DNA of 64,000 nt from a phage, in sequence record PZ445524.1. One strand, given 5' to 3'. The notes beneath the pieces are model-generated. The model did not search any database, was not told the origin of the DNA, and was given only the letters and a program-made list of their open reading frames with translations. The position numbers and the translations under genes were made by a program. Of this stretch, positions 41,238 to 44,055 are shown piece by piece; position 1 is the stretch's first letter; each line of letters begins with the position of its first letter.

Positions 41238-43502
41238 TCATAATTTACAGGATGAACAATCTTCAGCTTTTGGAGTTTCTATTTCATAATCATCAGTACC
41301 AGAACCATCACGGGTATTATGATAATAGAAATTTTTAATGCCATAATACCATCCGTATAGCATGTCATCAATCATTATTGACATTGGAACCTTTCCCTTT
41401 GGAAAAATCTGCGGGTCATAGTATGTATTCGCTGAAGCTGATTGACATACCCATTTCAGCATAATAGCTACCTGCGTAAGATAAGGTTTATTACCTTTCT
41501 TAGCTAATTTCCATGTATAATCATATAGGTCTATGTTATGCTCAATATTGGGCACGACTTGATTAAAGGAGCCCTCTTTTGATTCTTTAACAGAGACTGG
41601 TCCACGTGGAGGCTCGATGCCGTTTGTACTGTTAGAAACTTGGGAAGATGACTCACATGGCATAAGTGCTGATAATGTGCTATTACGGATGCCAAATAGC
41701 TTAAGGTCTTCCCGCAGCGACGACCAGTCACAAACGTATTTTGGAGCTGCGATTTGGTCAATCTTTTTATTGTACCAGTCGATAGGTAATTCGCCTCGAG
41801 ACCAACGAGTGTCTGAATAATATTCGCAAGGTCCTTTTTCTTTGGCGAGCTTAATGGATGCTTTAATGAGTCCATACTGTAATCTCTCAAATAGTTCATG
41901 TGTTAAATCGTTAGCATCTTCATAAGAAGCAAAGTTACTTGCCAGCCAAGCTGCATAGTTAGTAACACCTACACCAAGGTTACGACGCTTTTTAGCTTTT
42001 TCTGCTTCAGGAACTGGATATCCTTGGTAATCCAACAGATTATCAAGAGCACGAACTTGAACTTCTGCCAATTCATTAATTTTATCTTGGTCTTGCCAGT
42101 CAAAATTATCCAGTACGAAGGCAGAGAGAGTACACAACCCAATTTCAGCATCAGGACTATTCACATCATTTGTTGGAATAGCAATTTCACAGCACAAGTT
42201 ACTCTGACGAATAGGTGCCTTTTCACGAATAAACGGAGTATAGTTATTCGTATTATCAATGAACTGTACATAAATCCTTGCTGTTCCTGAACGTTCAGTC
42301 ATGAGCAATTCAAATAGTTCACGGGCTTTAATACGCTTTTTACGAATATTAGGGTCTTTTTCTGCTGCTTCGTATAATTCACGGAAACGGTCTTGGTCTT
42401 TAAAATAAGAATAATAAAGCTCTCCACCCATTTCATGCGGACTGAACAAAGTAATGTAATCGTTCTTTCCAAAACGTTCCATCATCAAATCATTCAGTTG
42501 AACGCCATAATCCATATGACGAATGCGGTTTTCTTCTACGCCTTTGTTATTTTTCAAAACGAGAAGATTTTCAACTTCCAAATGCCAAATAGGATAATAA
42601 GCAGTAGCAGCGCCGCCACGAATTCCACCCTGTGAGCATGATTTAACTGCAGTCTGAAAATGTTTCCAAAAAGGAATAACACCGGTATGGCGTACTTCAC
42701 CCATGCCAATCTTAGAACCTTCGGCACGAATCATACCAACGTTAATACCAATTCCAGCGCGTTTAGAGATATATTCAACAATTGAAGCGGAAGCCTTATT
42801 GATAGACTTCAGCGAATCACCTGCCTCAATAACAACACATGAACTAAACTGTCGAGTCGGAGTACGACAACCAGCCATAATAGGAGTTGGCAATGAAATC
42901 TGTCGAGTAGATACTGCTTCATAAAAACGAATAACATGTTTTAATCTATCAACAGGTTCATCTTGATGCAATGCCATTCCAATAGTCATAAATGCAAACT
43001 GTGGAGTTTCATAAATTTGACCAGTGGTTTTATCTTTAACTAGATATTTTTCTTTTAATTGCATCGCCCCGGAATAAGTAAATTCCATATCCCGCTCGTG
43101 CTTAATTTTTGATTCTAAAAATGTAATTTCTTCTGCTGAATATTTTGACAATAATTCAGGGTCATATTTACCTTCATTTACACAGTAAGAAATATGGTCA
43201 ATAAATGAACGTGGTTCATACTGCCCATAAACATGCTTACGAAGAGCGAACATTAAACAGCGTGCAGCTACATATTGATAATCAGGTTCTTCAACCGAAA
43301 TAGAATTCGCAGCAGCCTTAATGACAATAGTCTGAATATCATCAGTTGTCATTCCATCACGGAGATAAGATTTAATATTTTCATATAATTCATAAGGATC
43401 TACTGATGTTCCTTCAGCTGCCCAAGATAAAACTTTAATAATTTTTTGTGGGTCAAAGCTCTGAGAAACACCACTACTTTTGATAACATTAATTAATTGC
43501 AT
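41238..43502 (-). CDS. nrdA: ribonucleotide reductase alpha subunit NrdA
   Basis: 754 aa, T4 NrdA length; class Ia RNR large subunit. Confidence 0.95.
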   Translation of the reverse strand: MQLINVIKSSGVSQSFDPQKIIKVLSWAAEGTSVDPYELYENIKSYLRDGMTTDDIQTIVIKAAANSISVEEPDYQYVAARCLMFALRKHVYGQYEPRSFIDHISYCVNEGKYDPELLSKYSAEEITFLESKIKHERDMEFTYSGAMQLKEKYLVKDKTTGQIYETPQFAFMTIGMALHQDEPVDRLKHVIRFYEAVSTRQISLPTPIMAGCRTPTRQFSSCVVIEAGDSLKSINKASASIVEYISKRAGIGINVGMIRAEGSKIGMGEVRHTGVIPFWKHFQTAVKSCSQGGIRGGAATAYYPIWHLEVENLLVLKNNKGVEENRIRHMDYGVQLNDLMMERFGKNDYITLFSPHEMGGELYYSYFKDQDRFRELYEAAEKDPNIRKKRIKARELFELLMTERSGTARIYVQFIDNTNNYTPFIREKAPIRQSNLCCEIAIPTNDVNSPDAEIGLCTLSAFVLDNFDWQDQDKINELAEVQVRALDNLLDYQGYPVPEAEKAKKRRNLGVGVTNYAAWLASNFASYEDANDLTHELFERLQYGLIKASIKLAKEKGPCEYYSDTRWSRGELPIDWYNKKIDQIAAPKYVCDWSSLREDLKLFGIRNSTLSALMPCESSSQVSNSTNGIEPPRGPVSVKESKEGSFNQVVPNIEHNIDLYDYTWKLAKKGNKPYLTQVAIMLKWVCQSASANTYYDPQIFPKGKVPMSIMIDDMLYGWYYGIKNFYYHNTRDGSGTDDYEIETPKAEDCSSCKL

Positions 43503-43819
43503 AAGTCCTCAACTTGAAAATCGTCTTTAAACAATCGGTTAACTATATGAGCTATTATATCACCATGACACGGCTTTGGTTTACATGTGCATCCTAGCCT
43601 CATTCCACGTAAAGGCTCTAAATGTGCTTTAGTTATTTCTCCGGATTTAATTCGACGTATAAAATCTTTTTTGAATAATTCAATGGCAGCCGGGAGGCTG
43701 CCAGCATCTTTACCGACGTAATTTCCCCAAAATGTACCGCGGTGAATATTAACATCAAAGTCGGATTTGTATTTATTCACTACCCGGCATAGACGGCCCA
43801 CGCTGGAATAATTCGTCAT
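43493..43819 (-). CDS. small Cys/His-motif protein (WGN...CxCxPxPCHGD, DUF4326-like)
   Basis: 108 aa; motifs FWGNYV and [15 protein letters not shown]. Confidence 0.6.
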
Positions 43820-44036
43820 ATTGTTTTTCCGTTAATACAGTAATATCGTAGTAACAGTCAGAAGAAGTTTTAACTGTGGAAATTTTATTATCAAAATACT
43901 CACGAGTCATTTTATGAGTATAGTATTTTTTACCATAAATGGTAATAGGCTGTTCTGGTCCTGGAACTTCTAACTCGCTCGGGTTAGGAAGTGTAAAAAG
44001 AACTACACCAGAAGTATCTTTAAATCGTAAAATCAT
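43773..44036 (-). CDS. hypothetical protein
   Basis: 87 aa ORF between td exon 2 and nrdA. Confidence 0.55.
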
Positions 44037-44055
44037 ATATCCTCACAATTAATAA

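Follow-up and report, generated by a model that had tools for sequence, protein, structure and literature searches.

What does the small open reading frame (ORF) just upstream of nrdA encode in T4-type phages, and what might its product do? We addressed this question in a 64,000-nucleotide stretch of phage DNA (sequence record PZ445524.1; hereafter the window), where a 108-codon ORF occupies this position. Sequence comparison identified the ORF as nrdA.1 of a T4-type phage, encoding a stand-alone DUF4326 domain. At the DNA level, the region shares 98.9% identity with T4 and close relatives, and 106 of the 108 residues (98%) are identical to T4 NrdA.1 (NP_049846 / UniProt P32279); the nearest protein record, from Escherichia phage Pu-Krd-SF4, is 99.1% identical. 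The protein matched the whole Pfam domain model of DUF4326 (PF14216; E=3e-20, with a score of 73.1 bits where the gathering cut-off is 25) and, in PHROGs, phrog_464 (E=3e-46), whose function is listed as unknown. The original prediction, made from the DNA letters with no database search, had suggested a DUF4326-like family and described an FWGNY motif and a Cys/His signature; the Pfam profile search reproduced the family, and both motifs are present as described (residues 30-34 and 75-89). NrdA.1 had no match in NCBIfam or PADLOC, and no named anti-defence or defence family was matched. Public sources already contain nrdA.1, its assignment to DUF4326 and a functional prediction from comparative genomics, and several public T4 records carry the label "DUF4326 domain-containing protein." Labels reading "NrdA-like ribonucleotide reductase" (phrog_24867; H63 vB_EcoM_ZYD and H64 ETEC-TG) were rejected, given that they propagate the name NrdA.1 and reflect no ribonucleotide reductase (RNR) homology.

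We found that nrdA.1 is a real gene under purifying selection. The ratio of nonsynonymous to synonymous substitution rates (dN/dS; Nei-Gojobori), limited to 84 core codons that overlap no other gene, was 0.07-0.25 between the genera Tequatrovirus and Kanagawavirus and a Klebsiella phage. Conservation of the ORF in related phages, which the original prediction presupposed, was borne out by homologues in several Straboviridae genera. The T4 protein was seen by mass spectrometry in a time-resolved proteome (PMC9697503, supplementary files 4 and 6), where it falls into the class "early RNA, late protein," as do NrdA, NrdB and NrdB.1 (PMC9697503). The main text of the CRISPRi-ART paper on T4 does not mention nrdA.1. 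We give hardly any credence to the view that nrdA.1 is not a gene at all, being either a chance ORF or a mere carrier of regulatory RNA or DNA elements (hairpins, promoters) upstream of nrdA; although the 1988 T4 record J03968 has only stem-loops and promoters here and no coding sequence (CDS), this view is refuted by the Pfam match, the thousands of homologues, the selective constraint and the detection of the protein in T4 infection. In Klebsiella phage R3_1 (L022, 380-697), the annotated CDS (464-697) is too short for the homologue, whose conserved N-terminal sequence, (M)KICRVVNKY, starts at a GTG upstream of the annotated start.

The family to which NrdA.1 belongs is large. With E<=0.001 as the threshold, the DUF4326 profile search returned 10,873 cluster representatives, and the family comprises approximately 11,000 clusters at 50% identity. 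Homologues were found by tblastn in 1,907 of 50,697 phage records (approximately 4% of sequenced phages), and the domain is also found in hundreds of species of bacteria and in viruses of archaea, as well as in giant viruses, in agreement with the earlier description of a widely distributed, uncharacterised family. Residue conservation was counted in 153 domains taken from the 150 best distant representatives. C77 and C84 were present in every domain, H85 in 152 and C79 in 151, and V14, N15, D22, I25, R27, G32, N33, P34, L70, L75, G76, P81, G86 and D87 were each conserved in at least 90%. Among T4-like relatives, the invariant residues were C11, V14, N15, D22, I25, R27, G28, G32, N33, I46 and I62, together with L70, R74, G76, C77, C79, P81, C84, H85, G86, D87 and V93 in the C-terminal part; of these, C11 is conserved specifically in the T4 clade. 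Alignments A1, A4 and A5 gave the same picture for C77, C79, C84, H85, N33, R27, D22, N15 and D87, each being either fully invariant or kept in at least 90% of sequences. The Cys/His motif L-G-C-x-C-x-P-x-x-C-H-G-D is complete in the NrdA.1 of the window. Residue 34 is Pro in 139 of the 153 distant domains and Tyr in the T4 clade, so that the GNP of the family reads GNY.

Because so many invariant positions, whether polar, Gly or Cys/His, lie within some 80 residues, NrdA.1 looks like an enzyme. The original prediction had allowed for an enzyme or a regulator, and the former is favored by the approximately 15 near-invariant positions (polar, Cys, His or Gly) in a domain of this size. We tentatively favor the reading, which we hold at somewhat less than an even chance, that NrdA.1 is an enzyme that uses a cysteine to remove or transfer a ribose-attached phosphate, either on a molecule derived from a nucleotide, nicotinamide adenine dinucleotide (NAD) or ADP-ribose or on a nucleic-acid end. 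The Aravind group has likewise predicted that DUF4326 is a cysteine-dependent phospho-ribose-processing enzyme. The active site would be the strand-loop-helix segment G76-C77-x-C79-K-P81-x-x-C84-H85-G86-D87, with N15, D22, R27 and W31-G32-N33 as helper residues on neighbouring loops. A Cys, together with H85, would attack the phosphate on the ribose, and the phosphoryl group would be removed from, or transferred on, a nucleotide- or NAD/ADP-ribose-derived molecule or a nucleic-acid terminus; candidate nucleophiles are C77, by its position, and C84-H85, by the shared CH dyad. In T4-type phages, nrdA.1 would be transcribed early along with td and with nrdA, to which its translation would be coupled, and the enzyme would probably act during the DNA-replication and nucleotide-supply phase, where it might clear phospho-ribosyl by-products or neutralise host interference based on nucleotides or NAD. 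We infer catalysis, the nucleophilic Cys, the substrate and the biological role alike. The phospho-ribose prediction draws support from the strand-Cys-loop-helix geometry, from a relation to DUF488, from the pairing of DUF4326 with SLOG, NADAR, Macro and TIR domains, and from its pairing with DuOB, PolA and RNase H.

The geometry comes from two AlphaFold2 models, which concur in a compact alpha/beta domain. Model 1 was built from 32 sequences, with a predicted local distance difference test score (pLDDT) of 85.3; model 2 was built from 100 sequences, with a pLDDT of 89.6 and a predicted template modelling score of 0.82, and all five of its models scored at least 88. The predicted elements are a strand at 12-15, short strands at approximately 23-28, helices at 42-59 and 64-70, a strand at 74-77 and a short C-terminal helix. 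In both models, the Cys/His signature forms strand 74-77, a seven-residue loop (78-84) and helix 85-96, with C77 at the strand end and C84-H85 at the N-terminus of the helix. The Cys loop would thus lie between a strand and the following helix, where rhodanese and protein-tyrosine phosphatase (PTP) enzymes hold their catalytic loop, and a comparative-genomic paper reads it not as a metal site but as a rhodanese-phosphatase-type catalytic loop (PMC9503650). In BFVD, Foldseek recovered approximately 45 DUF4326 proteins, encoded by phages and by viruses of archaea as well as by giant viruses; beyond DUF4326 it gave insignificant matches, one to a DUF488 protein at E=1.5 and another to a protein-tyrosine phosphatase at E=2.1. 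The top PDB match of model 1, the phage sugar-bisphosphate phosphatase AfhF (9iqw), is a Mg-dependent enzyme of the HAD fold and was dismissed as noise (template modelling score 0.18, root-mean-square deviation 15 Angstrom). Hidden Markov model searches of the PDB sequences with two profiles gave nothing meaningful, and the PDB searches by sequence and by predicted structure point to no solved structure that is recognisably related to DUF4326.

The relation to DUF488 was seen in two comparisons. Eighteen of 91 diverse stand-alone DUF4326 members weakly matched PF22751 (the "active DUF488-N3" subclade); the best of these matches had E=0.0017, and none reached the gathering score. No other family was matched by more than 2 of the 91. 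The PF22751 matches were collinear and ran over the C-terminal half of DUF4326. An hhalign comparison of a DUF4326 alignment with 43 DUF488 proteins from bacterial loci gave P=0.003 over 52 columns and paired the LGCxCKPxxCHGD-helix of DUF4326 with the LLCSEhkPHhCHRR-helix of DUF488. The DUF4326 profile gave no significant match to Escherichia coli YeaO when that sequence was compared on its own. Together, the Pfam and hhalign comparisons weakly suggest a collinear relationship between DUF4326 and DUF488, which would agree with the view of the Aravind group. RapZ-C, DUF488 and DUF4326 were reportedly placed in one group by Burroughs and Aravind in 2023.

The partners of DUF4326 were examined in fusions and in gene neighbourhoods. 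A census of 46 multi-domain relatives found mSLOG in 7, YAcAr-SLOG in 6, NADAR in 4, DprA-like SLOG in 4, Macro in 1 and TIR in 1; SLOG, NADAR, Macro and TIR domains bind or cleave nucleotides, NAD or ADP-ribose. Further partners were RNase H, a T7-type RNA polymerase and a family-A DNA polymerase (PolA), where DUF4326 separates the exonuclease part from the polymerase part. Prokaryotes were scanned at one genome per species with alignment A5 as the query (A4 was too diverse), which gave 517 loci, of which 80 were retrieved and 79 had a callable DUF4326 ORF. Just over half of these (40/79) carried a same-strand operon of DuOB (dual OB-fold, PF22557), DUF488 (PF04343/PF22751) and mSLOG::DUF4326 or a related fusion of approximately 200 residues, in that order. 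The operon is spread across Proteobacteria (for example, L081 2486-4234 and L037 2440-4288) and is presumably the system of Burroughs and Aravind 2023. None of the 21 stand-alone cellular copies had DuOB, DUF488 or mSLOG neighbours, and the window has no DUF488, DuOB or mSLOG gene and a single DUF4326.

In phages, a DUF4326 gene lies directly upstream of nrdA in Tequatrovirus, Kanagawavirus and T4-like phages of Klebsiella and Acinetobacter. In Enterobacter phage Entb_45 (Kanagawavirus; L021 1-1094), nrdA.2 is absent, and td, DUF4326 and nrdA follow one another directly, each start overlapping the preceding stop by 1 nt, so that NrdA.2 (DUF5496) is not an obligatory partner of NrdA.1. Elsewhere, the DUF4326 gene adjoins gp46 (of the gp46/47 recombination nuclease) in Vi01-like phages and, in a T5-like Vibrio phage, lies near genes for a nucleoside deoxyribosyltransferase, a PnuC-like transporter and a deoxynucleoside monophosphate kinase. 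The literature ties DUF4326 to anti-defence at one point only: in amoeba viruses, homologues of ORF83, an anti-Avs protein, bear the domain at their C-terminus. In the metagenomic contig k141_50485 (L003 5249-6315), a stand-alone DUF4326 gene follows immediately on a gene of the Thg1 family (3'-5' nucleotidyltransferase), with an RlaP-family gene close by; this neighbourhood in one phage-like contig hints at an RNA-repair context. In Aeromonas phage avDM2 (H48, 105724-106041), a DUF4326 match falls under a CDS named "TD: thymidylate synthase," possibly a td::DUF4326 fusion or a mis-annotation.

Several points weigh against a cysteine-dependent phospho-ribose enzyme. The C-X5-R(S/T) signature is absent; the loop of NrdA.1 has no Arg, and its spacing C79-X5-H85 ends in His. 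In the PDB, the best Foldseek matches of the two models had E=1.9 and 3.8, neither of them significant, and no structural likeness to solved rhodanese, PTP or RapZ-C structures emerged. A match of model 1 to PTPN21 (E=3.3) was gone with the better model, and a Klosneuvirus PTP match (E=2-3) fared likewise. The DUF488 link is statistically weak (hhalign Prob 10.7%), and DUF488 is itself uncharacterised. The family Pro34 is lost in the T4 clade, and the conserved Arg42 is lost in the allele of the window, which could mean either tolerance at this position or reduced function. Linkage to nrdA is confined to one phage family, the Straboviridae, and the genes next to stand-alone copies, in phages as in cells, say little about function: in metagenomic and phage contigs they are mostly anonymous small ORFs, in some phages in blocks of small early ones. 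Literature searches found no biochemical or genetic data on any DUF4326 protein and no functional study of nrdA.1, nrdA.2 or DUF5496. Lastly, on sequence grounds, three invariant Cys and one His within 9 residues would be equally typical of a metal site.

The original prediction had suggested metal binding, and we considered that C77, C79, C84 and H85 could form a Cys3His zinc (or Fe) site, which would make NrdA.1 either a metalloenzyme of other chemistry or a non-catalytic adaptor or regulator that binds nucleotides or nucleic acid. The smallness of the protein, its four near-invariant ligands of metal type in nine residues and the missing Arg of CX5R would all suit such a site, as would the Glu that DUF488 aligns near C79, itself a possible metal ligand, and RapZ-C, a reported relative in the clade, binds ligand and RNA. 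We regard a metal site as somewhat unlikely, given that the adjacent C84 and H85 would seldom ligate one ion, that the invariant N15, D22, R27, N33 and D87 suggest a substrate pocket, and that two divergent relatives lacking C79 retain C77, C84 and H85. The same phosphate chemistry could instead be directed not at a diffusible nucleotide but at a terminal phosphate of DNA or RNA, or at an ADP-ribosyl or phospho-ribosyl adduct of replicating phage DNA. NADAR and Macro domains reverse ADP-ribosylation of DNA bases, and such a target would fit their fusion to DUF4326, the fusions to PolA, RNase H and RNA polymerase, the DuOB partner in the cellular operon, the gp46/47 neighbour in Vi01-like phages and the Thg1 and RlaP neighbours in the metagenomic contig. 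However, the stand-alone 108-residue protein has no recognisable nucleic-acid-binding module, partners such as SLOG and TIR speak for small nucleotides instead, and the window has neither DuOB nor DUF488 nor SLOG, and we consider a nucleic-acid target to be on the improbable side.

A role in thiol redox chemistry was also considered. The three Cys would act as a disulfide relay, as in the arsenate reductases of the same superfamily, and would serve RNR or another redox step of dNTP synthesis. The gene is directly upstream of nrdA and appears translationally coupled to it, its three invariant Cys are close together, and T4 NrdA.1 shares its expression class with NrdA and NrdB. We nonetheless judge a redox role very unlikely: the nrdA linkage is restricted to Straboviridae, the fusion partners are not redox proteins, and there is no CxxC, no thioredoxin or glutaredoxin signature and no such Pfam match. 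T4 also has its own RNR reductant in nrdC.

Coordinates of the gene, its conserved segments and its neighbours are collected in Table 1. The gene order in the window, from the ORF list and comparison with T4, is frd-td-nrdA.2-nrdA.1-nrdA; td is split by a GIY-YIG-type intron ORF (I-TevI), and dihydrofolate reductase lies beyond it. The original prediction had placed the ORF in a nucleotide-metabolism operon, which holds for its position between td/nrdA.2 and nrdA, but the linkage does not extend past Straboviridae. The nrdA Shine-Dalgarno sequence GAGGA lies inside the last codons of nrdA.1, and the overlap of the two genes suggests that they may be translationally coupled. At the other end, the 47-nt overlap with the upstream 87-residue ORF was confirmed as previously reported; it is identical in the annotation of T4 NC_000866 and in Sa45lw. 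The overlap follows from the 10-residue N-terminal extension of the T4 clade. Its length led us to consider a programmed frameshift joining nrdA.2 and nrdA.1, which was rejected, given that nrdA.2 is missing in Kanagawavirus and the homologues start independently. The td/nrdA.2 spacer (44037-44055) has a substitution cluster and a 1-nt indel relative to T4, and its coding flanks are nearly identical. The window is a close relative of T4 and an exact match to none of the T4 records listed.

Table 1. Features of the nrdA.1 locus, in positions of the window.
Feature	Position	Strand	Basis
nrdA.1 orthologue, 108 aa	43493..43819	-	ATG start; weak GGA Shine-Dalgarno 8 nt upstream; ORF list, T4 NP_049846
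DUF4326 domain, residues 11-90	43550..43789	-	PF14216 E=3e-20, profile positions 1-81 of 82
Putative active-site (signature) loop C77-T-C79-K-P81-K-P-C84-H85-G86-D87	43559..43591	-	Conservation in distant relatives, AlphaFold, DUF488 collinearity
N-terminal conserved block, residues 15-34 (N15, D22, I25, R27, G28, W31-G32-N33)	43718..43777	-	Conservation tables
Overlap of nrdA.1 5' end and nrdA.2 3' end, 47 nt, out-of-frame	43773..43819	-	ORF list
Overlap of nrdA.1 stop region and nrdA start, 10 nt (ATGCAATTAA)	43493..43502	-	
GC-rich 8-bp hairpin TGGCAGCC-GGGA-GGCTGCCA within nrdA.1	43684..43703	no strand	T4 DNA alignment, RNA folds, J03968 stem_loop
nrdA.2 orthologue, 87 aa, DUF5496, upstream neighbour	43773..44036	-	Pfam PF17600 E=2e-63
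nrdA, ribonucleotide reductase large subunit (alpha), 754 codons, downstream gene	41238..43502	-	

The two amino-acid differences from T4 NrdA.1, R42E43 to L42P43, arise because the 4-nt loop of the hairpin in Table 1 is inverted relative to T4. On the plus strand, the loop reads GGGA in the window and TCCC in T4, and the GGGA (GNRA-type) tetraloop of the T4 mRNA becomes UCCC. The hairpin corresponds to a stem_loop in record J03968, upstream of the putative nrdA promoter, and RNA folds indicated that the two alleles fold equally well. The inverted allele was found in approximately 6 of 492 phage records (ECML-134, T4_ev151, SP21535 and Pu-Krd-SF3/SF4 among these) and is natural, being present also in a 184-member protein cluster; exact 24-mers in IMG/VR gave no match for it and 6 for the T4 allele. 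Arg42 is conserved in 83% of the distant domains and in at least 90% of alignment A5, so that its replacement makes L42P43 either a tolerated allele or a hypomorph. A second difference touches the "promoter, late" motif that J03968 places inside nrdA.1. This motif, AATAAATATAAATC in T4 (containing TATAAAT), reads AATAAATACAAATC in the window (43764-43777); the variant base at 43769 is synonymous (Tyr17, TAT to TAC), and with the altered motif the phage may lack a late promoter inside nrdA.1.

What the identification of nrdA.1 gives is already stated in public annotation. DUF4326 is, however, one of the larger protein families whose function is a matter of prediction, and its partners place it between NAD/ADP-ribose chemistry and DNA replication, a position central to phage-defence research. 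The T4 gene, as a minimal, stand-alone, expressed and easily deleted copy, is a convenient entry to the activity of the family. A bolder and unlikely proposal is that T4 NrdA.1 is the founding member of a new enzyme class, with an unsolved fold and a Cys-x-Cys...Cys-His loop, that destroys or remodels phospho-ribosyl or ADP-ribose-derived molecules or adducts made by host immune systems (of the TIR, Thoeris, SIR2 or DarT type). If this were true, the best-studied phage would hold an unrecognised counter-defence activity, and the L42P43 allele created by the hairpin flip would be a natural hypomorph.

Compared with T4, the length and start of nrdA.1, its overlaps with nrdA.2 and nrdA and the td(I-TevI) synteny are the same in the window. 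With respect to Pfam DUF4326 and PHROG 464, NrdA.1 has all of the family-wide residues (N15, D22, R27, G32, N33, L70, G76, C77, C79, P81, C84, H85, G86 and D87), to which the T4 clade adds the conserved Cys11 and the N-terminal extension. The principle that NrdA.1 is proposed to share with Cys-dependent phosphatases and rhodaneses (PTP, dual-specificity phosphatases [DSP], Cdc25 and arsenate reductase) is a nucleophilic Cys on a strand-helix loop of a small alpha/beta domain, although NrdA.1 has three Cys rather than one and a much smaller domain with three short strands. DUF488 (PF04343/PF22751) has, by weak but recurrent profile matches, a collinear C-terminal arrangement of strand-C-x-(C/E)-x-P-x-x-C-H-helix but differs in having CHRR against CHGD and Glu at the position of C79, and its N-terminal half could not be aligned with that of DUF4326 by the tools used. 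The two families are encoded side by side in the conserved bacterial operon, in which the mSLOG::DUF4326 fusions bear the same invariant DUF4326 residues as NrdA.1; the bacterial proteins add an N-terminal nucleotide-binding SLOG domain and two dedicated partners, whereas the phage protein stands alone.

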